In this document: positions 2,450 to 31,215 of the stretch, piece after piece
Layout of the letters: each line of letters begins with the position of its first letter
How positions within the stretch are numbered: position 1 is the stretch's first letter
Source of the DNA: Candidatus Falkowbacteria bacterium
GTDB lineage: Bacteria; Patescibacteriota; Patescibacteriia; Patescibacteriales; UBA12465
DNA length: 33,088 bases
Direction: 5' to 3'
NCBI GenBank assembly: GCA_903839955.1
Contig: CAIMEI010000053.1
Location: forward strand, 1 to 33,088
Notes under the pieces: generated by a model
Databases searched by the model: none
Told to the model about the DNA's origin: nothing
Seen by the model: the letters and a program-made list of their open reading frames with translations, nothing else
Program-made: the position numbers and the translations under genes

Positions 2450-3757
2450 ATGAAAAAAATTATTTCCCTGACTATTCTGGCCGCCGTCGTGCTTTTTGCC
2501 GCCGTGCCTGCTGGTCAAACTAAAAACAAATCTTATTATTCTGGCGACGCCCTTAACTATAATGGCCAGCTAGTAATCGCCTCCGCGAATACCGGCAATT
2601 TGGAAATTTTCAAATTGAACGGCAATAGTTTGGATCGCGTTATTAGCGTCCGCCCGCTCAATGCCCGCTTCAACCGCTATGATAGCTACTACCAAACCAA
2701 GCTCTCCGAAGAGAATGGCCATTTGTATGCTTACGCGATCACCGACTTCAAGGTTGATAAGTACGACATCAGCGCGCTGAGTGCTAACCCGGCTTTGGTT
2801 AATACTATTTCCAATACCTATTGGGAGTGGTATGGCGATATGGACCAGGTCGGCGACCATTTCTTAACTATTGGCAGCCAGGGCGTTAAGCTCTTAAATA
2901 GCGACATGCAGGTTGTGGATAGCTATAACTTAAAAGATGCTGACCAATACAATATCCGCGTCAGCGAAGATGGCCGTTACCTATTAGACATTCAAAATAA
3001 CGCCGTCCAGGTTTTTGACCGCCAAACTCGCAGTATCGTCAGCACCATTTCCTTAAACTACAATAAGGCTTCTGACAATCGCCGCGCCGCCATGGATGCC
3101 AGCGGTAATATCTTTGTCACCGACGACTTCTATACCAAAGAGTTTTCTCTCGACGGCACCTTGAAGGCCAGCTTCCGCCACTTGGATCAGCCGGGCTACG
3201 ATACCGTTCTGACCGATAACAGCGTTTATTTTTCCAACGGCGTCGGCGTCGTTAAATTATCTCAAGATAGCTTGAAACTGCAGAAATATCGCTACACCGG
3301 CGTCTACGGCGGCAACGGCTGGGCCATGGGCCTAAAAGCTGTTCCGACCGACAATGGCGATCGCGTCGTGGTCTTTAACGGTTCCGGCATCTTGGTCTTG
3401 AATCAGAATTTACAGAAGACTGCCTTCTTCGCCAGCGATATCGCGGCCGACGAAATCTCCGCCACTCCGACTGAAAATCTCTGGCTAAAAACGGACACTA
3501 ATAGCGCTCAGCCGGGTGTTAACCTGAAGTTAAGCGGTGGCGGCTTCGCTCCGAACGAACTGGTCAATATTTATTTTGACGGCCAAAGCAATCAGAATGC
3601 CCAAGCCGACAACCAGGGCCAATTCAGTGCCAACTTAATTGTGCCAGTCATCACCATGGCTTCCACCACTCCGAGCAAGGCCGTGGACATCAAAGCCGTG
3701 GGGGCAACCTCCGGTCTCCACTACAGCACCAGCTTCACCGTCAGCAACATCCATTAA
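2450..3757 (+). CDS. secreted protein, beta-propeller-like repeats with a C-terminal Ig-like segment; function unknown
   Basis: 435 aa. Signal peptide MKKIISLTILAAVVLFAAVPAGQ. Repeated motifs of the type 'DG.Y/L..D..N..V.VFD' and 'DASGNIFVTDDF' resemble NHL/YncE-type blades. Family not identified. Confidence 0.7.
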   Translation: MKKIISLTILAAVVLFAAVPAGQTKNKSYYSGDALNYNGQLVIASANTGNLEIFKLNGNSLDRVISVRPLNARFNRYDSYYQTKLSEENGHLYAYAITDFKVDKYDISALSANPALVNTISNTYWEWYGDMDQVGDHFLTIGSQGVKLLNSDMQVVDSYNLKDADQYNIRVSEDGRYLLDIQNNAVQVFDRQTRSIVSTISLNYNKASDNRRAAMDASGNIFVTDDFYTKEFSLDGTLKASFRHLDQPGYDTVLTDNSVYFSNGVGVVKLSQDSLKLQKYRYTGVYGGNGWAMGLKAVPTDNGDRVVVFNGSGILVLNQNLQKTAFFASDIAADEISATPTENLWLKTDTNSAQPGVNLKLSGGGFAPNELVNIYFDGQSNQNAQADNQGQFSANLIVPVITMASTTPSKAVDIKAVGATSGLHYSTSFTVSNIH

Positions 3758-6491: not shown

Positions 6492-7442
6492 TTAACCGCG
6501 GCGCGAAAAGATGACACCGAGATTAAATAATGATGAATCTAGCGGTCTAGAATCCAGTTGAATTTCTCCGTCATTATTAAAAGACAGATAGACATTCTTT
6601 CCTTCGAAATCCAGAGCATTTGTTCTGAAACCTTGGCCGTAGGGCAAAGGATCAGGATTACGATAATAATAAATTAGCAGGTCGTAGAAAGCTTCCACTG
6701 GGCTACGACGAAATAGCTGGTTGAATTTCAGATGGAATAATTCCTCGTCCGAGGAACTATTCATTAGGGACTGAAAGCAATCGCCTATAGCACTGCCGTA
6801 TTCATCTGAGCACTTAAGGCCCTGAAAAACTTTACTCACAGCGTAGTCATACAAACAATCCGTCTCCACCGAATAACCTCTATTCCTCGATCCTTCAATA
6901 AACTCTTTCCCGCACAAAGCCCAACCGAAAGTTGACGCATCTTCCAGATAAAATTTTTCCTTTTTAAAACTAGTCCTTTCCAACATAACTCTAAGCAAAT
7001 CAAAGCCATGAGTTTTAAACCGTTTGATAATCCTATCAATACTCAAAATCTGGCCATCTTCGTCTTTATCAAAGCGAAAAATCAAGTATTGCCCCAACTC
7101 CTTGGCGCGTTTCAATTCTTCGCGATCAAAAGGAATTAGCGGAAAACCATCAAGGCCGCCGCTAATGCCATCGCCAAAAATAATTTTTTTGACCTCTCTG
7201 GGGCCGAAAACATTTTCTTCGCCCAAAATAACTTGCGCGGCAATGATTTGCTCCAGCAAGGAATAATCCGTCCAAGGCCTTTCTCTTGCCGACTCCTCGG
7301 TGGTGTGGATTTCATTAGCTTCGCTAATTTCTGTTGGTGCCGGCTTTCTGTTAATTCTTTTTAGGGTTCCTGGGGATATTTTAATAGCCACCAGGCTAAT
7401 CACTATGGCCAGAATAGAGATGATAATTGCTGTTGCTCCCAT
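6492..7442 (-). CDS. hypothetical protein with N-terminal membrane anchor
   Basis: 316 aa. N-terminal TM MGATAIIISILAIVISLVAIKI. No motif recognised in the rest. It has its own promoter and terminator. Confidence 0.65.
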   Translation of the reverse strand: MGATAIIISILAIVISLVAIKISPGTLKRINRKPAPTEISEANEIHTTEESARERPWTDYSLLEQIIAAQVILGEENVFGPREVKKIIFGDGISGGLDGFPLIPFDREELKRAKELGQYLIFRFDKDEDGQILSIDRIIKRFKTHGFDLLRVMLERTSFKKEKFYLEDASTFGWALCGKEFIEGSRNRGYSVETDCLYDYAVSKVFQGLKCSDEYGSAIGDCFQSLMNSSSDEELFHLKFNQLFRRSPVEAFYDLLIYYYRNPDPLPYGQGFRTNALDFEGKNVYLSFNNDGEIQLDSRPLDSSLFNLGVIFSRRG

Positions 7443-10171: not shown

Positions 10172-12433
10172 ATGTATAAAATCGCTCCCTTAATTCTCAA
10201 TTCCGGGAAAAAAACCGGCGGTGCCGGCCAGATTTTTATCGCCCAGCCGGACGCCCTCAAGGAAGATGTCGCCGGCAAACTATTCATTCTGTTTGAGGCC
10301 AAAGGCAAAAGCGCCGACTTGAGCCAAGTAGCGGATTTTTTGGTCGCCAACCTAAACTACTATTATTACGAAAACGAAAAGATTTCCCTGCTCGGCAAAG
10401 TCAAAGACTTGAAACCGGAAAATATTTTTGAAGGGGCGCTCGCCAAAACCAATTCCGAATTCTGGGAATGGCTCAACAACGAGAAACTTTCTTTCAACCC
10501 GGTAAACGCCAGCATCACCGCCGGCATCGTTTTGGAGCAAGAAATCCACTTCTCTTCCTTCGGTTCCAACACCATCAAGCTGATCTTCAAAAAAGGCGGC
10601 GGCTACGAAATTGTGGATCTTTTGAAAAATGAAACGGACCACGACGGCTTCGGCGATAAGCTTTTTTCTTCAGTGGTCAGCGGCCAATTGCCCGCCGACG
10701 CCTCCTTTGTCCTCACCAACGAAGCTTTACCGGAATATGTTTCCGAAGATGACCTGAAAAGTATTGTTTCCAAATTGCCGCCGATTAGCGCCGCCGAACA
10801 GTTGAAAAACCTGCTGGCCGCCTCCAACTCCTTCGTTCCCTTCCTGGGAATTATCGTCAAAAGCACCAAATTGGGGGCAGAAAACCGTGAAGTGGCCTAT
10901 AGCGATTCGGCGAGCGCCCACTCTTCCATGAATAACCTCAATTATACTGAGGAAAAAACTGAACGCTTACTGTCGCCCATCGGCGCTTTTAATATCCGCA
11001 AAGGCGTCAAAAAAGCCAGCGGATTTTTAGAACGATTCATGCCGCGGCCGAAAGATCCGGAAATTAAAGCAGATAGTTACAAAGAAGAAATTAATCGTTC
11101 GCCTCTGATCTCACCGATCAGCGCTGGCCCGCAAAGAATTGAGATTTCCGAACCGATGCGCCGCCGCAGCAATCAGAAAAAAAGCGCCGGTCCAAATTTC
11201 CGTGGCATCATGAGTGCGGGCGCTTCCGCCACCGTCGTGGGAATCAAAAAAAGCGGCCAGCTTTTTAGCCTGACTTTCTGGAAAAATTTGCCGCAGAAAA
11301 TCAAAGCTTGGTTTTTGGCCCTCAATCTTCAGCAAAAATTCTTGGCCGGCATTTTATTATTCGGCTGTCTTTTCTTGGCCTACAACCTATTATTCACCGG
11401 CAAAATCAATAAGTCCCGAGAAGAAGGCAAATTATTCACCGCCACGATTTCCAGCACCAAAGACAAGGAAGATCAGATTGACTCCTATTTGCTCTACGGC
11501 AACGAAGAGGGCGCCAAAATCATCGCTGGTAAAATTGAAAGCGACTTGGACGGTCTCAGCCAAAAACAGAAAAATAGCAACGACTTCAAGACCGTCAATG
11601 ATCGTTTCACGGCTCAGCTGGCCAAAATTGAGCACCTCAACAAAGTAGAAGCCACGGCCGTTTTTGACTTCGCCACCACTTTGCCCGGCGCCAATCCAGA
11701 AACAATTTATTTAAAAGATTTTACTCTTTTCGCCTTTGATAGCAGCTCAAAAACCTCTTTCTTGTATGATCTCAAAAATTCCGACGCCAGTAAAAACGCC
11801 GTTAGCAAATTGAATTCACCGATTTTCGGCACAAGCGACAAAGCCGGCGTCGTCTACCTGTTTAGCGGCGACAACATTGGCAAATTAGACGCCGCCCAGA
11901 ATTCTTTCAGCTTCACCCCGGTGACCCTGGGCGCCAATCAAACAATCGTCAGCTTTGACACCTACGCCAACAAAGCTTACCTGCTCAATTCTGGCGATGG
12001 CCAAATCTACCGCTACGTCATCAAAGACGGCAGTTATCAAGGAAGCGAAGCGCGCCTCGCCACTCCGGCGGGCACTGACGCCGCCTCCTTCACCATCGAC
12101 AAGCTTTCTGATAACAGCCCAATTTTCCTAGCGAAAAAAGATGGTGAAATTCAAAAATATCTCAACGGCGAAAAACAAAATTTCAGCTCCGATTCACTTA
12201 TGCCAATCACGAGCGGCGTTTCCAAAATAATCTTAGACGGCAAAAATATCTATCTGGTTGACCGCCAAGAGAAAAGAATTATTGCTTTCACTCTGGACGC
12301 AGGCAAGACGCACGCCAAATTCCGCGCCCAATACGAATTTACCAATCTCAGCGAGCTCAAAGACGCCACCATCACCGGCAACACCGCCTATCTGCTCAGC
12401 GGCAGTAAAGTTTATAGCGCCGTGTTGAAATAA
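10172..12433 (+). CDS. large hypothetical single-pass membrane protein (degenerate PP2C-like N-terminal region, beta-propeller-like C-terminal region)
   Basis: 753 aa. One central TM (FLAGILLFGCLFLAYNLLF). The N-terminal 200 aa resemble the PPM/SpoIIE layout (ITAGIVLEQEIHFSSFGSNTIKLIFKKGG ... SFVLTNEALPEYVSEDDL) but lack the catalytic Asp residues. The C-terminal half is repeat-like and beta-rich. Confidence 0.7.
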   Translation: MYKIAPLILNSGKKTGGAGQIFIAQPDALKEDVAGKLFILFEAKGKSADLSQVADFLVANLNYYYYENEKISLLGKVKDLKPENIFEGALAKTNSEFWEWLNNEKLSFNPVNASITAGIVLEQEIHFSSFGSNTIKLIFKKGGGYEIVDLLKNETDHDGFGDKLFSSVVSGQLPADASFVLTNEALPEYVSEDDLKSIVSKLPPISAAEQLKNLLAASNSFVPFLGIIVKSTKLGAENREVAYSDSASAHSSMNNLNYTEEKTERLLSPIGAFNIRKGVKKASGFLERFMPRPKDPEIKADSYKEEINRSPLISPISAGPQRIEISEPMRRRSNQKKSAGPNFRGIMSAGASATVVGIKKSGQLFSLTFWKNLPQKIKAWFLALNLQQKFLAGILLFGCLFLAYNLLFTGKINKSREEGKLFTATISSTKDKEDQIDSYLLYGNEEGAKIIAGKIESDLDGLSQKQKNSNDFKTVNDRFTAQLAKIEHLNKVEATAVFDFATTLPGANPETIYLKDFTLFAFDSSSKTSFLYDLKNSDASKNAVSKLNSPIFGTSDKAGVVYLFSGDNIGKLDAAQNSFSFTPVTLGANQTIVSFDTYANKAYLLNSGDGQIYRYVIKDGSYQGSEARLATPAGTDAASFTIDKLSDNSPIFLAKKDGEIQKYLNGEKQNFSSDSLMPITSGVSKIILDGKNIYLVDRQEKRIIAFTLDAGKTHAKFRAQYEFTNLSELKDATITGNTAYLLSGSKVYSAVLK

Positions 12434-17221: not shown

Positions 17222-17246
17222 AAACCGATTGTTAGTAATCGGTTTT
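17221..17246. terminator. bidirectional intrinsic terminator (small-paralog cassette / uvrC)
   Basis: AAAACCGATT, loop GTTAGT, AATCGGTTTT: a perfect 10-bp stem followed by a T-run. The uvrC stop codon (17232-17234) lies in the loop. Confidence 0.7.
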
Positions 17247-18413
17247 TTTATACCCTGAATTTTTCTTCGCTCCTCGTTTCCGGCCAAAGTTGGCAAAACG
17301 GTGCGCCTCTTCCCTGACCTTCAAAAGTACCGGTTTGAGATTTTTGAAAAGTTCTTTGGAATTGTCTTTGGTGCCGCGCGCAAACACCAGGCGGTCGCCG
17401 CCGAATTTGGAAATGCCTACTAGCGACGGGCGCAAATTTAGCTTCGCTAGCTCCCGAGTCAAGAAAGAAATCTGTGGTGAACCGCCGTCAATCATAATCA
17501 GATCTGGCATAGGCCACTCGGCGTGCTGAAAACGACGGGTCAGAACTTCCAGCAAGGCCCGTTCATCGTCACCGCCGGGGGCTTCCTGGAGCTTGAAGAG
17601 GCGGTACTGCGCTTTATCCGGCTCCGTACCGGAAAAGACCACCATCGAGCCATAAGAATCCTTGCCGGCCAAGTGAGAAATGTCATAGCCTTCAATGCGG
17701 TTGAGGTGCGGTGTCTCCAAATTCTCTTCCCGCATCAAGAGAGAAACATCTTGCAAGTGACGCAGGGCTTTTTCTTGGAGCGGATTTTCTTTGGCCAGCT
17801 GTTTCAAGAGTCTCGTCCTTTCTCCGGACAAAAGCATTTTCAAGTGCTTGATATTTTTTTGATAGTCCTTGGGCTTAATGATGCCCAGGCAGGAACCTGG
17901 ACATAGACCAACTTGATAATCAAAACAGGCTTTGCCATTATTTGGCACGCAGGTGCTCCAGGGGAAAACTCTCCGGATTAGCCTTAGAGCGTTCGCGATG
18001 AGAGTTTGCGATTGGTAGGGACCGAAAACCGTATAGCGGTCTTCGGGAAATTTCTTCAGGTCTTGGCCACGGATGATAATCGGCTTGGGATAGTCGCCGC
18101 TGGTGATGACGATATAAAGGAAAGAGCGATTGTCGCGGTCGCGAACATTATATTTCGGCCAATAGCTTTTAATCTCCTTGGCTTCCAAAATTATCGCCTC
18201 CAGCAAAGTTTCCGTTTCCTGCCAGCGCAAATCATGGGCGCTCGCCACCATTTCGGCAATGCGCCGCTCCACGTTTTTCTGAAAATATTGAGAAAGCCTA
18301 TTCTTGAGACTGGTCGCTCGGCCGACATAAAGAACTTCTCCATTTTCGTCTAACCAAAAATAAACGCCAGGCGCTTTGGGGGCTAATTTTGCTTTTTCTT
18401 TGGGGGTTGGCAT
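17232..18413 (-). CDS. uvrC: excinuclease ABC subunit C, shortened form
   Basis: 393 aa. N-terminal GIY-YIG (GVYFWLDENGEVLYVGRATSLKNRLSQYF). Cys-containing linker (CFDYQVGLCPGSC). C-terminal endonuclease domain (RIEGYDISHLAG ... DLIMIDGG ... EEAHRFA). Canonical UvrC is about 600 aa. Confidence 0.85.
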   Translation of the reverse strand: MPTPKEKAKLAPKAPGVYFWLDENGEVLYVGRATSLKNRLSQYFQKNVERRIAEMVASAHDLRWQETETLLEAIILEAKEIKSYWPKYNVRDRDNRSFLYIVITSGDYPKPIIIRGQDLKKFPEDRYTVFGPYQSQTLIANALRLIRRVFPWSTCVPNNGKACFDYQVGLCPGSCLGIIKPKDYQKNIKHLKMLLSGERTRLLKQLAKENPLQEKALRHLQDVSLLMREENLETPHLNRIEGYDISHLAGKDSYGSMVVFSGTEPDKAQYRLFKLQEAPGGDDERALLEVLTRRFQHAEWPMPDLIMIDGGSPQISFLTRELAKLNLRPSLVGISKFGGDRLVFARGTKDNSKELFKNLKPVLLKVREEAHRFANFGRKRGAKKNSGYKKTDY

Positions 18414-18433
18414 TTATAGGAATCCAAAAGAAA

Positions 18434-18787
18434 TTATAATTTTTCTAAAAAAATATCTATTTGCTCCAATAAATAAGAAGTCGCTCTATTTTTTCTTAAG
18501 GCTGTAATATTTTCGTTGCAATTAAAAAAAATTTCTGCACTTTTTAATTCATCATCAGATTCGTTTGAGTCTATATTATTTTTTAACGCCCAATCATCTC
18601 TATCAATAAAAAAGTCTTTATACCCAGGTCTATTATCTTCTTTGTAATTACCGTTTAGACCAGAAACCACCACTTTTAACTGGCTAGCAATATATTTATC
18701 CCCACATAAGCAAATATATGGTTCGTAAACAAATTTTATATTTATATTTTGACCTTTGATATTTTTGTATAATAGAAAATTATTCAT
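18434..18787 (-). CDS. hypothetical protein (AT-rich islet)
   Basis: 117-aa ORF in a visibly AT-rich stretch. It starts 8 nt after the upstream ORF and ends 20 nt before uvrC. No motif recognised. Confidence 0.5.
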   Translation of the reverse strand: MNNFLLYKNIKGQNINIKFVYEPYICLCGDKYIASQLKVVVSGLNGNYKEDNRPGYKDFFIDRDDWALKNNIDSNESDDELKSAEIFFNCNENITALRKNRATSYLLEQIDIFLEKL

Positions 18788-18795
18788 ACAAAATA

Positions 18796-19089
18796 TTATT
18801 TATATTGTTTATAGCAATTATCTTTAGCTGCTTGTATTTTGCTATCTAAATCTGGGATATACTGAAAATCCTTAGTAACAGGGTTCGTCTCTAGTTTTTT
18901 GACATTGTTAGTTGCATTGTCTAAACAAACAGACAATCCAACTTGCTTATCTTTTTCCATTTGCAACTCTATCTGTTGATACTTTTCAATAGACCGCTGT
19001 TTATTCGCCTGGCTGGCATAGTAAAATCCTCCAAGAATAAGCGAACATAATAAAATACTAGCTGGTAAAATTAATTTATGTTTATTCAT
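18796..19089 (-). CDS. hypothetical small membrane-anchored protein (AT-rich islet)
   Basis: 97 aa. N-terminal TM (LILPASILLCSLILGGFYYA). It starts 15 nt after the Fic stop. Confidence 0.5.
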   Translation of the reverse strand: MNKHKLILPASILLCSLILGGFYYASQANKQRSIEKYQQIELQMEKDKQVGLSVCLDNATNNVKKLETNPVTKDFQYIPDLDSKIQAAKDNCYKQYK

Positions 19090-19104
19090 ATTATATTTAT
19101 TATA

Positions 19105-20010
19105 TTATTTTTCAGTTATCCGACTTTTGTATTCAAAATCCTCGCCGATTTTCCAAACGCCTTTTTCTCGGAAAGCCGGAATGTTCTGGCGGCGCGCGGC
19201 ATTAATCATTCCTGGGGCGGAAAAATTATGCATCTTGGTATATTCGGAAAGAGTAATAATTTTTTGACCTTTAAGATAAGTGATTCTTTTATTTAATGAT
19301 TCGGTTAAAGCTAAGGCAATAACCCTTTCCATTGTTTTAGTATTCTTTTCGTCGCGATATCGTGAAAAGGATTGATAGTATTCTTTCTTTTCGCGATCTC
19401 TAATAATAATTATCGGAAAGCCCAGGCGTTGCAACTGAAAACAAATCAACACCCGGCCAATACGGCCATTGCCATCACAAAATGGATGAATAGTTTCAAA
19501 ATCTAAATGAAATTTAGCAATTTTATCCAAAAAATAATTAGCTAAATCACTGGTATATTCGGTGATGATCGCTTCAATCATCCGCTCAACATGTTCCGGC
19601 GCCGGGGCGACATGAGTTCCGACGCGAACATATTCACCAAGCTTTCTAAAACGCCCAGCAATATTATCATCAATTCCGCCAATCAGCATTTGATGCAAAA
19701 GCAAAATTGTTTCTTTGTTGGTCTCAGTTTCTTTGCTCTTATTGCGAATGTAGCCGATAACGCGAGCCAAATTTTTAGCTTCGTAAACTTCGCGCAAAGA
19801 AACATCGCGCGAGACCTCCATGTCCAAAAGAATCTTCTCAGTTTCTTTGAGGGTTAGGGTGGAATTCTCAATAGCGTTGGAATTATAAACGCTTTCTGGC
19901 GCTTCTGCTTCGTCAATCATCACCAAAAGAGACTCCTTGCCCTGGCGAAGAGTGTCATATTCGCTTTTTAAGGCTGTGAGCCTGTCTTTTATCGGTTTTG
20001 TGACCGCCAT
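19105..20010 (-). CDS. Fic family protein (class II, intramolecular inhibitory motif) with C-terminal HTH-like tail
   Basis: 301 aa. Fic motif HPFCDGNGRIGR (nt 19453-19488). N-terminal SNAIEN (nt 19864-19881) fits the [S/T]xxxE[G/N] inhibitory-helix motif. The C-terminal ITLSEYTKMHNFSAPGMINAARRQNIPAFREKGVWKIG resembles excisionase/HTH_17-type domains. Confidence 0.9.
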   Translation of the reverse strand: MAVTKPIKDRLTALKSEYDTLRQGKESLLVMIDEAEAPESVYNSNAIENSTLTLKETEKILLDMEVSRDVSLREVYEAKNLARVIGYIRNKSKETETNKETILLLHQMLIGGIDDNIAGRFRKLGEYVRVGTHVAPAPEHVERMIEAIITEYTSDLANYFLDKIAKFHLDFETIHPFCDGNGRIGRVLICFQLQRLGFPIIIIRDREKKEYYQSFSRYRDEKNTKTMERVIALALTESLNKRITYLKGQKIITLSEYTKMHNFSAPGMINAARRQNIPAFREKGVWKIGEDFEYKSRITEK

Positions 20011-20035
20011 ATAGTTTATTATTTAATATAATAGT

Positions 20036-20064
20036 ATTATAGACGATTTACATAAAAAAGTCAA
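20036..20064 (-). promoter_or_regulatory. sigma70-type promoter for the Fic gene
   Basis: Minus strand: TTGACT (20064-20059), a 17-nt spacer, TATAAT (20041-20036). Confidence 0.6.
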
Positions 20065-20065
20065 T

Positions 20066-20108
20066 ATTTAGTGAATTACACCCATTTTTTACTTCCTATT
20101 CACTAAAT
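20066..20108. repeat. perfect 11-bp inverted repeat (terminator for uvrA and/or operator at the Fic promoter)
   Basis: ATTTAGTGAAT (20066-20076) and ATTCACTAAAT (20098-20108) are separated by 21 nt. The repeat lies 15 nt downstream of the uvrA stop and abuts the Fic -35 box. Confidence 0.6.
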
Positions 20109-20123
20109 TATCTAATAATCCCT

Positions 20124-22658
20124 TTATTTCCCCTTCTCCTTCGCCACCGTGAAATCCAGATACTCCTTCAAATATTTGCCCGTGATACTCTTCTCGTTCT
20201 TGGCCACTTCTTCCGGCGTGCCATAGGCGACAATCTTACCGCCCTTCTCGCCGCCTTCCGGACCGAGGTCGACAATGTAGTCCATCGACTTGAGCATGTG
20301 CAGATTGTGCTCAATCACCAAAACGGAATTGCCCTTCTCCACTAATTGATTCAAAACGACGAGCAGCATTTCAATATCGTGATAGTGCAAGCCGGTCGTC
20401 GGCTCATCCAAAAGATAGAGCGTGCGCTTACCCAAGGTCATGCTCAGCTCCTTGGCGATTTTGACGCGTTGCGCTTCCCCACCAGAGAGGGTGGTGGAAG
20501 ATTGGCCGAGTTTCAAGTAACCCAAACCGACGGCGTCCAAAACCTTTAATCTATCGGTAATTAAATAGTTTCCGTCAAACAAATCAATCGCTTCCACGAC
20601 GGTCATATCCAAAACATCGGCAATGCTTTTACCTTTGTATTTGACCTGCAAAGTTTCGCGGTTAAACCGCTTGCCACGGCAGACTTCGCACTCCACCAAA
20701 ACGGCTGGCAAGAAATGCATTTCAATCATATTGAAACCGGCACCTTCGCAAGCTTCACAGCGACCACCTGGACGATTAAAAGAAAAGCGGCCGATGCTGT
20801 AGGCGCGTTCACGCGATTCTGGCAGGGCGGCAAAGAAGTCGCGAATGGGAGTGAAGAAGCCGGTGTAGGTCGCCGGGTTGGAGCGCGGTGAACGGCCGAT
20901 TGGCGACTGGTCGATGATGACCACCTTGCTGACATATTCGGCCCCTTTGAGCTCGGTGACATCCTCTAGCTTGGCCTTCCCCGGACGGCTCTTTAAGTGA
21001 ACAAGATTTTTATACAACACGTCATAAAGCAAGGAAGATTTGCCGCTTCCCGAGACGCCACTGACCCCAACCAGGCGGCCGAGCGGGATCTCAACTTTGA
21101 GGTTTTTCAGGTTATTTGCGCGCGCCCCGATGAATTTTAACGATCCCCGGCTCTTGTCGCGGCGCTTTTTGGGAACTTCAATCTTCTTGACGCCGGTCAA
21201 ATATTGTACTGTTAGTGACTTTTTTAAGGCCTGCTTATTTTTGTCGGGATTCGTCAAATCTTTGATGTCACCAATGGCCACCACTTCCCCGCCATGTACC
21301 CCGGCTAAGGGGCCGAGATCGACCAGGTAGTCGGAGGCGAGGATGGTGCGCTCATCGTGCTCGACGATGAGCACGGTGTTGTTCTTGTTGCGTAAGGTCT
21401 TGAGAGTTTCAATTAAACGATCAGTGTCACGCTCGTGCAAGCCGATGGTCGGCTCATCCAAAACGTATAGAGTACGTGAGAGTTGAGAGCCAATTTGTGA
21501 GGACAGGCGAATACGCTGCGCTTCCCCACCAGAGAGAGTTTCGGCTTCGCGATCCAGTGATAAATAGTCCAAACCGACGCGATTCAAAAAGTCCAGGCGG
21601 TTTAAAATTTGGCCAATCACGTTCTCGGCAATCGTCAGCTCGCGTTTGGTCATTTTCTGATAGTACTTCCAAAAAAAGTCGTGCAGCTTTTCAAGCGACA
21701 GCGCACCAACCTCGGCGAGGTTCTTCCCGTGAACACGGACCGAAAGGGCTTCGGGGCGCAATCTTTTCCCACCGCAAGCCGGGCAATCTTTCTCGGCAAA
21801 ATAACCGATCTTTCCTAGGCCGGTACATTCCGGACAAGCCCCGTGTGGGGAATTAAAAGAAAACAACCTCGGCTCCACTTCCGGAAAAGAAAAGCCATCA
21901 TTGGGGCAAGTCCAATTGGAGGAAAGCAGAAATTCCTGGTCCTCAAAATTAGCAATCACCAGCCCCTTGCTATAGTTGATGGAATTTTCCACGGCTTCAA
22001 AAAGTCGCGTTTCATCGGAAAGCATCACCTTGTCGATGACAACATCAATACTGTGTTTCTGGTTGGCGGAGAGTTTTATTTTACTGCGCAGAGGATGTTT
22101 GACGCCATCAATGCGCGCCTCAAAATATCCAAGATGGATATAGTCATAAATCAGCTGATAATACTCGCCTTTACGGTCACGAACGACCGGACTGATAATG
22201 GTGACGTACTCTTTTTTTGCTTCCTTGCCCCGCGTGAGGATGATATCAATCATTTCTTCCAGGGACAGCTTTTCAATCTTGGTCCCGCAGTGCGGACAAA
22301 AGACTTCCCCAACCCGAGCATAAAGGATACGCAAATAGTCGTGAATCTCCGTCAGGGTGCCGACAGTGGAACGCGGATTGTGGGAGAGAGCTTTTTGGTC
22401 AATGGAAATGGCCGGCGCCAAGCCGATGATTTCGTCCACTTCGGCCGGTTTTTTTTGGCCGAGGAATTGGCGCATGTAGGGCGATAGGGATTCGACGTAC
22501 TGCCGCTGCCCTTCGGCAAAAATGGTATCAAAAGCCAGCGACGATTTGCCACTGCCGGAAACGCCGGTAATCACCGTCAAAGAATTATGCGGTATTTCCA
22601 GGCTGATATTTTTCAAATTGTGCATCCGCGCACCGCGGATGATGATTTTTTCGTCCAT
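20124..22658 (-). CDS. uvrA: excinuclease ABC subunit A, lacking the insertion domain
   Basis: 844 aa. It is collinear with E. coli UvrA from MDEKIIIRGARMHNLKNISL and has two ABC modules (GVSGSGKSSL twice; LSGGEAQR twice). Canonical UvrA is about 940 aa. Confidence 0.96.
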   Translation of the reverse strand: MDEKIIIRGARMHNLKNISLEIPHNSLTVITGVSGSGKSSLAFDTIFAEGQRQYVESLSPYMRQFLGQKKPAEVDEIIGLAPAISIDQKALSHNPRSTVGTLTEIHDYLRILYARVGEVFCPHCGTKIEKLSLEEMIDIILTRGKEAKKEYVTIISPVVRDRKGEYYQLIYDYIHLGYFEARIDGVKHPLRSKIKLSANQKHSIDVVIDKVMLSDETRLFEAVENSINYSKGLVIANFEDQEFLLSSNWTCPNDGFSFPEVEPRLFSFNSPHGACPECTGLGKIGYFAEKDCPACGGKRLRPEALSVRVHGKNLAEVGALSLEKLHDFFWKYYQKMTKRELTIAENVIGQILNRLDFLNRVGLDYLSLDREAETLSGGEAQRIRLSSQIGSQLSRTLYVLDEPTIGLHERDTDRLIETLKTLRNKNNTVLIVEHDERTILASDYLVDLGPLAGVHGGEVVAIGDIKDLTNPDKNKQALKKSLTVQYLTGVKKIEVPKKRRDKSRGSLKFIGARANNLKNLKVEIPLGRLVGVSGVSGSGKSSLLYDVLYKNLVHLKSRPGKAKLEDVTELKGAEYVSKVVIIDQSPIGRSPRSNPATYTGFFTPIRDFFAALPESRERAYSIGRFSFNRPGGRCEACEGAGFNMIEMHFLPAVLVECEVCRGKRFNRETLQVKYKGKSIADVLDMTVVEAIDLFDGNYLITDRLKVLDAVGLGYLKLGQSSTTLSGGEAQRVKIAKELSMTLGKRTLYLLDEPTTGLHYHDIEMLLVVLNQLVEKGNSVLVIEHNLHMLKSMDYIVDLGPEGGEKGGKIVAYGTPEEVAKNEKSITGKYLKEYLDFTVAKEKGK

Positions 22659-22670
22659 ATTTTCTGATTA

Positions 22671-23246
22671 TTACTGGAAAGGATTGGGAGCGGAAAAACT
22701 GATCAGATCCAGGTGATGATTAATAAATTCAATCGGCGTACCATATTTGCGGTTATACAAGAAATCCACGGAGCAGAAAAAGGCCTGATGGTAGTCAAAA
22801 CCCAATTTGGCACTCACTTCTTTAACCGCTTCTTCGGAGTCGCCTTCCACTTCTACTAGGGGCTCGAGATAGGGCCATTCATCAAGGGTTATTTCCACGC
22901 CATCTAGCTTCCAGAGTTCCCGCTTGGTCTCCTGATAGGCCTTGCGCCGACAGCCAATGCTGGTGAGAAAATCCACTGCTTCGTCAAAATTGTCCACTTC
23001 CAGACAGGTTTCTTTCTGGTTATCAATTTGACCGCCACTGACGACTTTCAGGCTCATGGTGATCTTGTCGTATTCCCGACGAACTCTTAGCCAGCCGTCT
23101 TTGATTTCGTGACCGACCGGCAATTCAAAGACCTCTCGGGTCATCATGAACTCCGGATGAATGCGCTCCGCCCCGGCTTTTTCCAAGCGCGCGCGGATCT
23201 CGTCTTTGTTTATTTCAATAAAAGTGGCTTCAAATTCGGTTTTCAT
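22671..23246 (-). CDS. CYTH domain protein (CyaB/ThTPase-like)
   Basis: 191 aa. N-terminal EFEATF (an ExExK-like motif with Thr in place of Lys), then WLRVRRE, ITMSLKV, KETCLEVD, ETKRELWKLDGVEITLDEW and LVEVEG. Together these match the CYTH strand pattern. Confidence 0.75.
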   Translation of the reverse strand: MKTEFEATFIEINKDEIRARLEKAGAERIHPEFMMTREVFELPVGHEIKDGWLRVRREYDKITMSLKVVSGGQIDNQKETCLEVDNFDEAVDFLTSIGCRRKAYQETKRELWKLDGVEITLDEWPYLEPLVEVEGDSEEAVKEVSAKLGFDYHQAFFCSVDFLYNRKYGTPIEFINHHLDLISFSAPNPFQ

Positions 23247-23254
23247 ATTAATAA

Positions 23255-24880
23255 TTAGGCCTGCCCTTCCGGCTGATTATAGTTCCAGTTTGGATGGTAG
23301 TAGGTATTATCTTGCTTTCCGGACTCGGCTAGATCGTCAAACAGTTTACGGAAATTTTCATAGCCTTTTTCGGAGTGAAAAAGATCCTTCATGTGAGAAA
23401 TTAATTCTCGAGAATTTTTCCCGAAACAATTAGGGTCATTGTAATATGTATCGATAATTTCCCGGTAAATTTCTTTAGTAAATTTTTCGCCCCTCTTCAT
23501 TATTCCCATATCAATCAGCTCGTTTTGCAAAATTTTTAAGCGTACATAGCGTTCAGTGGCTTTTTTATAATAATCATTATCTGATTGATCGCCGACGGAA
23601 TCTTTGTCTGTAAAGTCGGGGGCATAGGTTGTTTCTGACAGAATTTTTTGAGCAGCCAGGGAGAGTCCGGAATTTCCGTTGGTAGATTCGTGGTGCAGTT
23701 CATGTTCAATGGCGGTTTGGAAGAAGTCATCGATTTCCACATCAAGCGGTATTGTCACTTTATTGGTACCATTTGAAAAATAGGCATAACCACCAGACTC
23801 CTTGTCAATATCTTTGCTGAATTCAAAAACCGCTTCGGCATTATCCACATTTTTGATTCTCACCTGCTGGTGCTTTAGGGCTTTGGCGCGGTTAATCTTA
23901 AATTCCTTCATCAATCGATCCACGTAGCTGGAGTCTTTAATTGTATTCAGTACTCGCCCTTTGGCTTCTTGAAAAATTTTCATGATTAAAGGCGCCCGCT
24001 CAATAAGCTTGTGATCTTCAAGTTTGAACTCCGCGTCCTGGCCAGAAATAGCCTCAGCTAGCCTTTTTTGCAGTTCGGCCAAAGTATTTCTAATGTCTTT
24101 AACTAAATCCTCGTCAGCCTCCTTGTTGCCTTCAAGGTCCTTCAGATAGCTTTTATTCATTTCAATTTCGTCATTCAAGTCGCTGATATTCCTGTCGATC
24201 ATCGCCTCCTTAATTATGTCGGAAGAAATGTTACTGAGATTGATTCCTGGATTTTTCTTTTTCAAGTCTTTTTTGGCTTCAACAAATCTTTTCTTGTAGA
24301 TTTGATCGGCAATCATTTTTTTGGCCAAAACGCTGTCGGTCGCCGCTTTTTCCTGTCTATCTAAATGATGATGATTGATCTTATAAATACGAGTTAAATC
24401 GTATTCATTGGGACTCAGGTTGCGGACGGTCTCTTCTGTCGGCAGTGCTTCTTCTTCCTGGCTATCCTCCTCTATGTTGGCCTGGCGGATATTCCGAACA
24501 ATGGGCGCTTCATCTTTATTGCTATAATAATTATCTATTTCTTGCAGGAGCCCTGACATCAAACCGCCGGACAAGGCGATGGGGATGAATTCACGGCCGA
24601 TGCGGCTATGGCGTAAAATTTCCAAGACGCTGCGTTGAGATTTTTCTTTTTCTTGTCGAACTTCCTGGTTCGCCTTCTTAATAATAGTAAAGACTTCCGG
24701 ATTATCCGGAAAACTTTCCGTGATTTTTTCGCCCGACTCCACCACGTGCTTTTCGCTGGCTGAAGCGGTTTCAATAAAATCCTGCAAAGCCTGACGAGCT
24801 CCTTCGAGGCCGGGCTCTTTGATTTCACCAGATTCAACGATCGGCGTTTCTTCCTGATTGTCTAAAATTTCTTTGGACAT
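23255..24880 (-). CDS. hypothetical acidic/coiled-coil protein with C-terminal HExxH (zincin-like) motif
   Basis: 541 aa. The N-terminal two thirds are rich in E/K/D and look helical. HELHH lies at residues 393-397 (nt 23690-23704), preceded by beta-like segments (GGYAYFSNGTNKVTIPLDV). Confidence 0.75.
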   Translation of the reverse strand: MSKEILDNQEETPIVESGEIKEPGLEGARQALQDFIETASASEKHVVESGEKITESFPDNPEVFTIIKKANQEVRQEKEKSQRSVLEILRHSRIGREFIPIALSGGLMSGLLQEIDNYYSNKDEAPIVRNIRQANIEEDSQEEEALPTEETVRNLSPNEYDLTRIYKINHHHLDRQEKAATDSVLAKKMIADQIYKKRFVEAKKDLKKKNPGINLSNISSDIIKEAMIDRNISDLNDEIEMNKSYLKDLEGNKEADEDLVKDIRNTLAELQKRLAEAISGQDAEFKLEDHKLIERAPLIMKIFQEAKGRVLNTIKDSSYVDRLMKEFKINRAKALKHQQVRIKNVDNAEAVFEFSKDIDKESGGYAYFSNGTNKVTIPLDVEIDDFFQTAIEHELHHESTNGNSGLSLAAQKILSETTYAPDFTDKDSVGDQSDNDYYKKATERYVRLKILQNELIDMGIMKRGEKFTKEIYREIIDTYYNDPNCFGKNSRELISHMKDLFHSEKGYENFRKLFDDLAESGKQDNTYYHPNWNYNQPEGQA

Positions 24881-24883
24881 ATT

Positions 24884-25048
24884 TTATGACGACAAAGACG
24901 AGGAAAGCTCTTCGTGCTTTTCTTTGTCCTGCTTTTTTAAAACGGCGGCGATTTTTTGATCGCGCTCATTAAGGATCCGACTGAACCGTTCCTTGAAAGC
25001 GGTTTCTATTTTTTTTAATTCGGCCGAGATTTTTTCTGCCTCGTTCAT
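24884..25048 (-). CDS. 54-aa ORF, candidate stand-alone UVR-like helical hairpin
   Basis: It is below the ORF-track length cutoff. Own translation: MNEAEKISAELKKIETAFKERFSRILNERDQKIAAVLKKQDKEKHEELSSSLSS. It starts 11 nt after the uvrB stop and ends 3 nt before the next gene. Without it there would be a 179-nt gap in an otherwise tightly packed operon. Confidence 0.45.
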   Translation of the reverse strand: MNEAEKISAELKKIETAFKERFSRILNERDQKIAAVLKKQDKEKHEELSSSLSS

Positions 25049-25059
25049 ATTATTAAAAA

Positions 25060-26952
25060 TTAATTTTCGGCGTGATCCAGCATGTCCTCAATCTTTTTGA
25101 TGACGGTCTGCGGTGTGATGCCATGCTTCTTATTATACTCTAATTGTTTGATTCGGCGACGGCGCGATTCGGAAATTGCCCGCTCCATGGAGTCAGTAGT
25201 TTTGTCGGCATATAAAATAATCCGGCCCAAAACGTTACGCGCCGCCCGGCCCATTGTCTGCAACAAAGAAGTTTGACTACGCAAGAATCCTTCACGATCA
25301 GCATCCAAAATAGCTACCAGAGTCACCTCCGGCAAATCCAAGCCTTCACGGAGCAGATTAACGCCAATCAGGACATCAAATTTCCCCTCCCGGAATTGCT
25401 TGAGAATTTCCGTGCGCTCAAAAGTTTTGATGTCGGAGTGGAGATAGTTGGCCTGTAAACCTTTTTGGTTCAAAAAAGTGCTCAAATCCTCAGCCTGGGC
25501 CTTGGTTAAAGTATTAATAATCACTCGCTCGCCTTTGGCGGCGAGCACTTCCGCCTCAGCCATGATGTCATTAATCTGGCTATAGTTTTTTTCCTTATCA
25601 AAAACCGGACGGATTTCAATTTCTGGATCCACCAGGCCGGTCGGACGAATTACCTGTTCCACCACTTTGGTGGAATGCTCTCTTTCAAAATCTCCAGGCG
25701 TGGCGGACGTAAAAATGGTCTGACCGATGCGCTTCAAGAATTCCGCAAAGCGCAAAGGACGATTATCCATCGCCGAGGGCAAGCGCCAGCCGTATTGCAC
25801 CAGCGTTTTCTTGCGCGCCTGGTCGCCATTGAACATGCCGCGCACTTGCGGAACGGAAATATGCGATTCATCAATCACCGTCAAAAAATCCGGCTTGTCA
25901 TCCTTCCAGGGAAAATAGGCCAAAAGTGAATCCGGCGCCTGGCCGGCTAATTTGCCGGTGAGATGGCGAGAATAGTTTTCGATGCCGTGGCAATAACCAA
26001 GTGAGCGCAGCATTTCCATGTCGTAGTGCGTGCGGCGCTCCAAGCGCTCGGCCTCCAAAAGCAGGCCAGCCTCGCGGAAATAAGCCAGGCGGTCGTTCAA
26101 TTCTTCTTCAATATGCTTCACCGCCGCTTCCACTTGCGGCTGAGTGGAAACAAAATGCTTAGGCGGGAAAATCATAATTTCCGGCAGGGACTCCAAAATG
26201 TTCTTGGTGGTGTTATCGATTACTGAAATTTCTACTACTTTTTGGTCGGCCAGTTCAAAGCGATAAACGAGATTTTCCGATTTCGGCCGCACCTCAAAAA
26301 CATCGCCGCGCACCCGAAATTGGCCGCGCTCCACTTCGCCGTTGACCCGCTCAAATTGCATTTTGATGAGCTGGCGGATTAAATCGGCGCGCGTCATCGT
26401 CTGCTCTTTTTCCAAGCGCAAAGCAGATTCCAAATAGTTGAAGGGGATACCGAGATTGTAAATGCAAGAAACGGAAGCGACAATAATCACGTCGCGCCGC
26501 GTCATCAATGAAGAAGTGGCGGCGTGGCGCAGACGGTCAATTTCCTGATTGATCATCGCCTCCTTGTCGATGTAAGTGTCCGTGATCGGCAAATAAGCCT
26601 CCGGCTGATAATAGTCGTAATAGGAAACAAAATAATGCACCGCGTTATTGGGAAAAAAATTCTTGTATTCACGGTAGAGCTGAGCGGCCAGCGCTTTGTT
26701 TGGCGCAATCACCAGGGTCGGCCGATTAAATTCAGAAATCACCTTGGCGGCCGTGAAAGTCTTGCCGCTGCCGGTAACGCCCAAAAGAGTCTGGAAGGCG
26801 GCGCCGGATTTCAGACCTTCAAGCAGCCCCTTGATGGCCTCAGGCTGATCACCGGCCGGCTCAAAAGGCGATTGCAAGTCAAAAAGCGGTGTTTCAGATT
26901 TCTGAACACCGTCTTTTGAGATTTTGGTCTTTTTGAGCGTTGATTGGGCCAT
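25060..26952 (-). CDS. uvrB: excinuclease ABC subunit B, lacking the C-terminal UVR domain
   Basis: 630 aa. It shows Walker A (GVTGSGKTFT), the DESH box (VIDESHISVPQ), helicase motifs (GINLLREGLDLPEV, QTMGRAARN) and HGITPQT near the end. It terminates about 60 aa earlier than E. coli UvrB. Confidence 0.96.
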   Translation of the reverse strand: MAQSTLKKTKISKDGVQKSETPLFDLQSPFEPAGDQPEAIKGLLEGLKSGAAFQTLLGVTGSGKTFTAAKVISEFNRPTLVIAPNKALAAQLYREYKNFFPNNAVHYFVSYYDYYQPEAYLPITDTYIDKEAMINQEIDRLRHAATSSLMTRRDVIIVASVSCIYNLGIPFNYLESALRLEKEQTMTRADLIRQLIKMQFERVNGEVERGQFRVRGDVFEVRPKSENLVYRFELADQKVVEISVIDNTTKNILESLPEIMIFPPKHFVSTQPQVEAAVKHIEEELNDRLAYFREAGLLLEAERLERRTHYDMEMLRSLGYCHGIENYSRHLTGKLAGQAPDSLLAYFPWKDDKPDFLTVIDESHISVPQVRGMFNGDQARKKTLVQYGWRLPSAMDNRPLRFAEFLKRIGQTIFTSATPGDFEREHSTKVVEQVIRPTGLVDPEIEIRPVFDKEKNYSQINDIMAEAEVLAAKGERVIINTLTKAQAEDLSTFLNQKGLQANYLHSDIKTFERTEILKQFREGKFDVLIGVNLLREGLDLPEVTLVAILDADREGFLRSQTSLLQTMGRAARNVLGRIILYADKTTDSMERAISESRRRRIKQLEYNKKHGITPQTVIKKIEDMLDHAEN

Positions 26953-26976: not shown

Positions 26977-27005
26977 ATTTTAACGAAAAATCGCTAAAAA
27001 GTCAA
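26977..27005 (-). promoter_or_regulatory. sigma70-type promoter of the uvrB operon
   Basis: Minus strand: TTGACT (27005-27000), a 17-nt spacer, TAAAAT (26982-26977), 25 nt upstream of the uvrB ATG. Confidence 0.6.
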
Positions 27006-27043: not shown

Positions 27044-27427
27044 TTATTTTACCAAATATTTCTGCAGATTGGCCTGAGATTGCGGTGAACTATGCTTGCC
27101 GACGGAGTGGAACATTGCGCTTGCATCCTGTCCGCAACCGTTTAAAATCTTGTTCCCGCCCGGATGCATGCCGGATTGAACGTAAGGAGTGACATTATAG
27201 GTCTGGCCATCAATAATCATCCAGCAATCCGTGGCGCTATTGTGCTTGGCAACTTCTGCTAAGGCGGCCGGCGTAGCCGCTGGCGCGGTCACTTGCGTAT
27301 CACTGGCGCTTACTGCCGGGGTGTTGCTAGCCGGGGCAGCCGTCGGAGCGGTTGTTTGGCTCGCACAGGCCGCCAGAAAAAGCGGCGCGAGAACAAGCAA
27401 AGAGATCAAAAGGTGTTTTTTCTTCAT
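27044..27427 (-). CDS. cytochrome b5-like heme/steroid-binding domain lipoprotein
   Basis: 127 aa. Lipobox signal peptide (LVLAPLFLAAC|AS), a Thr/Ala/Pro-rich linker, then VAKHNSATDCWMIIDGQTYNVTPYVQSGMHPGG with the HPGG signature of cytochrome b5-like domains. Confidence 0.8.
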   Translation of the reverse strand: MKKKHLLISLLVLAPLFLAACASQTTAPTAAPASNTPAVSASDTQVTAPAATPAALAEVAKHNSATDCWMIIDGQTYNVTPYVQSGMHPGGNKILNGCGQDASAMFHSVGKHSSPQSQANLQKYLVK

Positions 27428-30762: not shown

Positions 30763-31215
30763 TTATAGCACACCGCCGTGATATTTCAGTCGATAAACCG
30801 CCTGGCCTTGATGGTAAATAGCCTCCTCGCCCGAAAAAGCCTCAAGATCGCCAATAAACTTATTTTCATATAAAAATTCTCCCGCACCAAATTCCTGCGG
30901 CCCGCGAAAGGGCGCGCTGACACTAGCCTTTTTCAGGCAGGCCTTGAGAAACGAATAAATTTCCCCTTGCGAAGCGCCATCCATCGGTTGGCAATGTCCG
31001 AAATAATTCATCAACCAAATCGCCTCCTTGCCTTGAAAAACCAACTCTTCCCCGCCGAAGGGGTTGGAGCCAAAATAGCGGTCGCGATAGAAAAAATCGC
31101 CCTGAGAGAAACTTAATTCCCGCGTGCCGTCTGGCAAGCGTTTTTCTCCGCCTTCCCCTTTGGAGGCATAGGTGTTTTTCTTGGCCTCAACTAAAAATTC
31201 CGCAAAAGATGTCAT
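30763..31215 (-). CDS. DUF5680 domain protein
   Basis: 150 aa. FLVEAKKNTYASKGEGG ... FYRDRYFGSNPFGGEELVF ... IWLMNYFG ... FRGP ... YRLKYHGGVL matches my memory of the DUF5680 family. That domain is often fused or adjacent to XRE HTH domains. Confidence 0.65.
   Translation of the reverse strand: MTSFAEFLVEAKKNTYASKGEGGEKRLPDGTRELSFSQGDFFYRDRYFGSNPFGGEELVFQGKEAIWLMNYFGHCQPMDGASQGEIYSFLKACLKKASVSAPFRGPQEFGAGEFLYENKFIGDLEAFSGEEAIYHQGQAVYRLKYHGGVL

Follow-up and report, generated by a model that had tools for sequence, protein, structure and literature searches.

The window analysed here is a 33,088-nt stretch of DNA from a Candidatus Falkowbacteria bacterium (assembly GCA_903839955.1, contig CAIMEI010000053.1, positions 1–33,088). 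It encodes UvrA, UvrB and UvrC, and neither UvrB nor UvrC contains a detectable UVR domain. The same holds throughout the sampled lineage. A 54-codon open reading frame (ORF) lies directly downstream of uvrB; it is a real coding gene and shows no relation to the UVR domain. The window thus contains a reduced UvrABC system beside a narrow, unnamed family of small proteins. We consider it very likely that the UVR domain of UvrB was lost and not split off, that the small ORF is a gene with another partner, and that the position after uvrB is a variable slot.

The C-terminal domain 4 of UvrB has been reported to serve as the docking site for UvrC (PMC10085695) and to be auto-inhibitory (PMC7835731). 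Residues 191–233 of UvrC form the element that pairs with the C-terminal helix-loop-helix of UvrB (PMC10085695, PMC7835731). An earlier note on this DNA, made from the sequence without database searches, observed that UvrB lacks this domain and proposed that it was either lost or detached as a free peptide encoded by the small ORF. Either case was taken to imply non-canonical recruitment of UvrC.

UvrB ends before the UVR domain

The uvrB gene (26952..25060, minus strand) encodes a protein of 630 residues with the C-terminus ...KHGITPQTVIKKIEDMLDHAEN. The protein is a UvrB by profile, with 902.2 bits against TIGR00631 (cut-off 750.1) and 917.9 bits against NCBIfam NF003673 (cut-off 743), and Pfam finds UvrB_inter, Helicase_C and PF12344. 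The Pfam scan does not report PF02151, the UVR domain, in this protein. In the same scan both E. coli proteins give a UVR match, UvrB at residues 634–667 (29 bits) and UvrC at residues 205–237 (39.9 bits); the latter also shows PF22920 and HhH. The NF003673 match spans only profile positions 2–597 of 653. In BLASTP, residues 24–630 align to residues 5–602 of the 673 residues of E. coli UvrB. The final 71 residues of the E. coli protein (603–673), which comprise the linker and the UVR domain (domain 4), have no counterpart. The window protein stops immediately behind its PF12344 motif. The absence of the domain noticed earlier is therefore confirmed by the domain search and by both alignment end points.

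The short form is the rule among relatives. We searched a collection of 5.8 billion proteins for relatives of UvrB, UvrC and the small protein. The nearest 120 UvrB proteins are 611–647 residues long and 77–100% identical to the window protein, and carry, where labels are given, the labels Patescibacteria or Falkowbacteria; PF02151 is listed for none of them. A scan of GTDB species representatives for uvrB gave 80 loci; 73 are from Patescibacteria and include the whole end of uvrB, and six are from outside the candidate phyla radiation (CPR). In nearly all of the 73, the uvrB frame stops 0–8 residues past the motif ...KKIE[ED]FLD... A UVR hidden Markov model (HMM) gives at most 2.5 bits in all 72 Patescibacteria UvrB proteins that could be scored, compared to 70–77 bits in the six non-CPR loci, the latter being training-set scores from the loci on which the model was built. 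The six non-CPR proteins run on into a linker and the sequence LEFExAAxLRDxI. UvrB without the UVR domain is thus found throughout the sampled lineage, and the conserved end point supports the loss of the domain, one of the two fates considered in the earlier note.

Some further features of these proteins and records were observed. A few Patescibacteria UvrB proteins (L032, L074, L053, L057, L068) have K/E/R-rich tails of 24–46 residues, none of which scores as UVR. At the other end of the protein, some 19 additional N-terminal residues (MAQSTLKKTKISKDGVQKSE..., 26893–26952) are present in the window UvrB and its nearest relatives (629–630 residues), and are absent from most of the 611-residue relatives and from E. 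coli UvrB. Many GTDB records with clearly Patescibacteria-type uvrB loci (L001, L004, L008 and others) are titled 'uncultured Gammaproteobacteria bacterium', and these titles look unreliable for taxonomy.

A short UvrB could also be produced by a sequencing or assembly frameshift that cut an ordinary gene, leaving the small ORF as its out-of-frame tail. The length of UvrB is the only observation that speaks for such an artefact. Contigs assembled independently from three lake-water runs match positions 24990–25188 and the adjoining stretches with neither a mismatch nor a gap; the check covered the assembled contigs, not the raw reads, of four runs at a depth of 2–6x. The same end point of UvrB recurs across the Patescibacteria loci with a complete end and in the 120 database proteins, and no fused form is present among the relatives scored. 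The frame of the small gene relative to uvrB varies between loci, with gaps of 11, 4, 13 and 25 nt, and its product is not UVR-like. The indel that the earlier note allowed for is not seen, and we give an artefact of this kind practically no credence.

UvrC lacks the complementary element

The uvrC gene (18413..17232, minus strand) encodes a protein of 393 residues. Its score against TIGR00194 is 293.3 bits, a narrow pass by about 8 bits over the cut-off of 285.45. Membership in this family agrees with the GIY-YIG domain and with the RNase H endonuclease at the C-terminus, in which the D/D/H positions are present. In the alignment to E. coli UvrC the Cys-rich motif is kept, and the motifs YDISH, IDGG and EEAHRFA correspond to FDISH, IDGG and DESHDHA of the E. 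coli protein, including the H538 position. Several NCBI records name the related proteins only 'GIY-YIG nuclease family protein'.

At E ≤ 10, Pfam reports only GIY-YIG and PF08459 in the window UvrC. Neither the UVR element nor PF22920 (the central RNase H-like domain) nor (HhH)2 is found at this threshold, and all three are detected in E. coli UvrC. The nearest 120 UvrC proteins are 384–411 residues long and have the same domain list, with UVR, PF22920 and (HhH)2 absent. UvrC without these three detectable elements is thus a feature of the whole sampled lineage. Since both UvrB and UvrC are without UVR, both halves of the UVR–UVR handshake are absent. The non-canonical recruitment of UvrC suggested in the earlier note gains support from this second loss.

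The position of the UVR element in UvrC is occupied by a strongly conserved stretch, LLLSGE..RL.KKL.KENP.QAKALKHLQDVSLL. AlphaFold2 models residues 199–223 of this region as two short helices (199–209 and 211–223) with a predicted local distance difference test (pLDDT) score of about 90. We considered a vestigial UVR domain at this site, as the stretch is conserved and helical and a pairwise alignment hinted at the equivalence of NPLQEKALRHLQDV and NLEFEEAARIRDQI. The profile comparison rules against it: hhalign of residues 181–228 against UVR yields a probability of 0.9%. Similarly, the unfiltered UVR HMM gives -0.2 to 1.5 bits for UvrC, which indicates no UVR similarity. We therefore call residues 199–223 a positional equivalent and not a UVR domain.

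The small gene downstream of uvrB is not a UVR domain

The small gene (25048..24884, minus strand) starts 11 nt after the uvrB stop in another frame, as described in the earlier note, and its 54 codons encode MNEAEKISAELKKIETAFKERFSRILNERDQKIAAVLKKQDKEKHEELSSSLSS. A profile search finds a family of 11 clusters with lengths of 41–54 residues, all on Patescibacteria-type contigs. The length is kept down to 28% identity. Five pairs are informative for the ratio of nonsynonymous to synonymous substitution rates (dN/dS); four of them give values of 0.07–0.37, and the remaining one has only five changes in total. Because the length is maintained and dN/dS is low, the ORF is a real coding gene. The conserved or invariant positions of the family are F18, R29, K32 and K38.

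The protein is lysine-rich and has no signal peptide. With the alignment of the 11 family sequences, AlphaFold2 predicts one unbroken helix that spans residues 3–53 with a mean pLDDT of 96. The helix-turn-helix-like shape suggested earlier is not reproduced. Attempts to identify the protein and its partners in NCBIfam, PADLOC and PHROGs gave nothing usable. The matches to ZorA (E = 0.0047) and FlgN (E = 0.0044) are far below the cut-offs and probably reflect coiled-coil composition.

The small ORF had been connected to UVR by its F-x6-R-D-Q signature. The string is indeed present, and a six-frame translation of the window (66,172 residues) contains no second instance of it. It is rare, but it is a single four-residue match found post hoc. 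It is also not conserved: F22 is a leucine in the other 10 of the 11 family members, RDQ changes to RDK or RNK, and D30 is an asparagine in five of the 11. Across the UVR alignment, F, E, A, A, R and D never vary within the pattern L-x-F-E-x-A-A-x-x-R-D, and the two alanine positions are occupied by I-L in the small protein.

Profile methods give the same result. Pfam reports no PF02151 match for the peptide at E ≤ 10. For the peptide and UvrC we used a second UVR HMM built from eight UVR domains and run unfiltered (--max), together with a leave-out version. All 11 members of the peptide family score at most 2.8 bits, while the leave-out model still assigns 26.4 bits to the held-out E. coli UvrB and 30.8 bits to UvrC. 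The comparison of the peptide alignment to the UVR alignment with hhalign gives a probability of 0.2%, and a search of the peptide profile against all PDB sequences at E ≤ 10 returns no Uvr chain. The UVR fold is a helix-loop-helix (PMC10085695). The small protein therefore differs from a UVR domain in profile match, in conserved core and in fold.

These results bear directly on the split-UvrB proposal, in which the ORF would be the detached UVR domain acting as a free peptide in UvrB–UvrC contact or UvrB dimerisation. The location 11 nt after uvrB, the singular occurrence of the signature and the fact that most family members follow uvrB are in its favour. The proposal is contradicted by the absence of UVR similarity in Pfam, the unfiltered HMM with its working controls, hhalign and the PDB search, by the single predicted helix, and by the substitution of the UVR-invariant phenylalanine and of the alanine pair. 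In addition, the peptide is absent downstream of uvrB in about 70 of the approximately 74 species loci with a UVR-less UvrB, it also occurs after tyrS (L081–L083), and UvrC has no detectable UVR domain for it to pair with. A domain fission does not fit the distribution either: the free piece is rare although UvrB is UVR-less in all 72 scorable loci, and one member stands after tyrS. Four independent tests contradict the idea of a UVR domain released as a free peptide, which we regard as refuted and extremely improbable.

The small gene travels with its downstream neighbour

Besides the window, only three species loci of the approximately 74 from Patescibacteria contain the small gene (L003, L015, L066). 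In L003 (2974–6389) it is part of a tandem cassette, with a 54-residue peptide and a 538-residue partner followed by a 41-residue peptide and a 501-residue partner. The second peptide copy lies 1.8 kb downstream of uvrB, and both copies precede paralogues of the 541-residue protein that is encoded next in the window (24880..23255, minus strand; its ATG is 3 nt after the stop of the small gene). Wherever the sequence could be followed past the stop of the peptide (the window, L081–L086, L090 and L092), a gene starts 3–4 nt behind it. The most divergent family member, P0131, is present on three contigs (L081–L083) after tyrS and before a gene of 272 codons, with no uvr gene nearby.

The tight spacing raises the possibility that the small ORF is a translational leader, an upstream open reading frame whose translation matters for the following gene and whose product does not. 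The conserved distance of 3–4 nt to the next ATG and the lack of a visible Shine-Dalgarno-like sequence before this ATG fit such a role. The low dN/dS values in four of the five informative pairs indicate purifying selection and, together with the invariant F18, R29, K32 and K38, speak for a functional product; coupling and a functional product are also mutually compatible. A leader with an irrelevant product is thus improbable.

The protein could instead be a new accessory factor of repair that shares no ancestry with UVR and replaces the handshake or acts with UvrA, UvrB or UvrC. Its gene is found repeatedly in the uvrB–uvrA gap, followed by members of two different gene families, and is probably co-transcribed with uvrB, with no terminator-like site in between. 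Its family comprises 11 clusters among 5.8 billion proteins, compared to UVR-less UvrB and UvrC in hundreds of lineages, and it is therefore not a general solution. Moreover, P0131 is located away from any uvr gene, and the constant neighbour is the downstream gene and not uvrB. We consider an accessory role in repair unlikely, though somewhat less so than a leader function.

The gap between uvrB and uvrA differs among relatives. In most, uvrA comes next after uvrB, either at once or behind a gene for a CYTH-domain protein. CYTH homologues stand directly after uvrB in L011, L020, L026, L028, L038, L041, L044, L046, L067 and L073. Depending on the locus, the gap is empty (e.g. L001, L004, L042) or is taken up by a CYTH gene, by the peptide with its partner, by only the zincin-like gene (L002, L036, L059) or by unrelated genes. 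It resembles a slot for recurrent insertions.

The 541-residue protein and other partners

The 541-residue protein consists of an acidic N-terminus (residues ~1–90, net charge -8), a hydrophobic segment (~94–112), a linker and a C-terminal domain (~300–540). It has no match in Pfam, NCBIfam, PADLOC or PHROG. Its C-terminal 240 residues define a family of 146 representative clusters. The domain contains an HExxH motif (H393, E394, H397) with a downstream glutamate, E443. Across 70 sequences, E394, H397 and E443 never change and H393 almost never does. Weak matches to PF18818 (MPTase-PolyVal) are seen in 13 of the 70 family members (best E = 4.8e-4), none above the curated cut-off, and the family profile weakly matches myroilysin, a structural-database entry, around the HExxH motif (E = 0.07). 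The protein thus has the conserved HExxH motif and third ligand of zincins, and no match to a curated peptidase family. From these features we describe it as a putative membrane-anchored or secreted zincin-like metallopeptidase.

The proteins encoded after the small gene fall into three groups that BLASTP does not connect; the 541-residue protein has no significant match to the partners in L081 and L084. In all groups, the first ~90 residues of the partners are acidic, with a net charge of -4 to -17. Scored with an HMM built from the N-termini of group 1, the N-termini of groups 2 and 3 exceed each of 300 composition-matched shuffles. The peptides with the highest charge (+6 to +8) occur together with the N-termini of the lowest (-16 to -17). 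Homologues of the 541-residue protein without the N-terminal extension (L036, L059) begin at the signal-peptide-like segment, and no peptide match is found in these two loci.

Operon layout and reduction of UvrA

The genes uvrB, uvrA and uvrC lie on one strand inside 10 kb (17232–26952). Downstream of the gene for the 541-residue protein are a gene for a CYTH-domain protein of 191 residues (23246..22671, minus strand; Pfam CYTH, E = 1.3e-8) and uvrA (22658..20124, minus strand; 844 residues, Pfam UvrA_inter). The intergenic gaps from uvrB through the small gene, the 541-residue protein gene and the CYTH gene to uvrA are 11, 3, 8 and 12 nt. We scanned the minus strand for promoter-like and terminator-like sites at the junctions of the small ORF with uvrB and with the 541-residue protein gene and found none. 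Because these junctions are free of such sites, the layout is consistent with a single transcript from uvrB to uvrA. The best sigma-70-like promoter match lies upstream of uvrB (26977..27005, minus strand), with agreement at 10 of 12 positions in a search that was a consensus scan only. Between 22500 and 27300 we count 17 terminator-like sites (a hairpin plus a T-run), compared to 6.6 ± 2.7 in shuffled sequences. Most are inside coding sequence, on either strand, and the excess may be a compositional effect.

UvrA is reduced as well. Pfam finds UvrA_inter and no UvrA_DNA-bind in the window protein, which is without about 114 residues corresponding to the insertion domain that canonical UvrA has. 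In the NCBIfam alignment, the match skips from residue 286 of the protein to profile position 403, and in a pairwise alignment residues 283–400 of a 938-residue control UvrA have no counterpart. The UvrA genes called after uvrB encode approximately 830–880 residues in the Patescibacteria loci, compared to 938–941 residues in two non-CPR controls.

A Fic/DOC gene (20010..19105) and an ORF of 117 codons without a family match (18787..18434) are located between uvrA and uvrC. Elsewhere in the window, minus-strand genes encode a protein with a cytochrome b5-like haem-binding domain (27044–27427) and a DUF5680 protein (30763–31215). Several large ORFs have no Pfam family (272–1249, 1354–2202, 2450–3757, 6492–7442 and 10172–12433).

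A model for the reduced system

The loss of the UVR domain of UvrB together with its partner element in UvrC would have taken place in an ancestor of these lineages. Since the three Uvr proteins are highly conserved, repair by the reduced UvrABC is probably still functional. UvrC would then be recruited through another contact, for which the conserved helix pair at residues 199–223 is a candidate. To our knowledge, the UVR–UVR contact is the only UvrB–UvrC interface that has been mapped.

The 54-residue helix may be a cytoplasmic partner of the downstream protein, bound to its acidic N-terminus as a chaperone, adaptor or regulator. Translational coupling of the small gene to the downstream gene would provide the two products together. 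Judged from the sequences, partner binding combined with coupling is the most likely role of the small gene. The uvrB–uvrA gap would be a variable slot in which such cassettes reside.

Several observations weigh against this interpretation. The interaction of UvrB and UvrC through their C-terminal helix-loop-helix and UVR elements is reported to be required for 3' incision in E. coli (PMC10085695), and a replacement contact must therefore be postulated. We infer the function of the reduced UvrABC from conservation, and the partner-binding role of the small protein from gene order, spacing and charge only. The similarity between the N-termini of the partner groups is weak, at 9–14 bits, and is benchmarked only against shuffles. 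In L002, the orthologue of the second L003 partner, a group-1 protein, has the N-terminal extension and no peptide gene upstream. Most of the peptide clusters (eight or nine of 11) stand directly after uvrB. This location may point to a role related to repair; alternatively, it may be synteny inherited among close relatives. Finally, the sampled loci come mostly from one part of the Patescibacteria, namely Falkowbacteria, Komeilibacteria, Buchananbacteria and a few metagenome-assembled genomes labelled Saccharimonadales or Saccharibacteria.

It is possible to go one step further. A large block of the Patescibacteria may run a minimised, working UvrABC without the handshake, without the PF22920-type domain and (HhH)2 of UvrC and without the insertion of UvrA. 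UvrC would use another, undescribed interface, possibly the KENP.QAKALKHLQDVSLL helix pair. Separately, the small helix and the acidic N-terminus could form a new modular device for partner binding or targeting that serves interchangeable C-terminal domains. We see the chances of this extended model as evenly balanced.

If it is true, a natural, conserved UvrABC without UVR on either side would offer a ready-made minimal system for studying the hand-over of a verified lesion from UvrB to the nuclease. For annotation, a short UvrB in a CPR genome is no reason to mark the gene as truncated or split. The small gene represents a narrow, lineage-specific family and is of value mainly as one case of a small protein that is conserved while its partner varies, in a group where few genes are characterised.

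Comparison with known systems

Full-text literature searches for UVR-less UvrB or UvrC, or for such a reduced architecture in Patescibacteria, found no paper. The components can nevertheless be placed next to known proteins. The small protein resembles the UVR domain (PF02151) in size class (~35–50 residues) and in its helical, charged character, and the window copy alone shares F-x6-RDQ. Unlike the helix-loop-helix of UVR with its L-x-F-E-x-A-A-x-x-R-D core, the family retains F18, R29, K32 and K38 on a single predicted helix, and its scores against UVR profiles are no better than noise.

The C-terminal domain of the 541-residue protein shares the HExxH motif and the downstream glutamate with zincin-like metallopeptidases (PF18818, myroilysin). 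Its family of 146 clusters differs from them in being unnamed in Pfam, NCBIfam, PHROGs and PADLOC, with no member at a curated cut-off.

The cassette as a whole is reminiscent of another type of system. In Gram-positive bacteria, LXG polymorphic toxins have WXG100-like or Lap partners, small helical proteins encoded upstream of a protein with a shared N-terminus and a variable C-terminus. The gene order found here, a small helical protein followed by a protein with a shared N-terminus and differing C-terminal bodies, is analogous. The likeness does not extend to sequence: there is no significant similarity, EsxB chains appear only at E ~0.5, and no LXG or WXG match is found in Pfam. No secretion genes of this kind are seen nearby, and the group-1 partners carry a Sec-type signal-anchor-like segment.

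The window UvrC can be compared to Cho and to reduced UvrC-like nucleases, which likewise join GIY-YIG to a Cys-rich motif and serve UvrAB-dependent repair with fewer domains than a complete UvrC. The UvrB-binding domain is missing from class II Cho proteins (PMC10085695). The window protein matches the NCBIfam Cho model weakly (49.6 bits). Unlike Cho, it keeps the C-terminal RNase H endonuclease, so both cuts would be possible in principle; unlike canonical UvrC, it is without the central PF22920 domain and (HhH)2.

The closest parallel for the window UvrB is UvrB*, the E. coli protein without domain 4. Both retain the helicase core, the beta-hairpin region, the UvrA-interaction domain and PF12344, and both are without the C-terminal helix-loop-helix. 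While UvrB* is a proteolytic or engineered product, the form in the window is the natural gene product, conserved in a whole lineage and paired with a UvrC that is also without its docking element.

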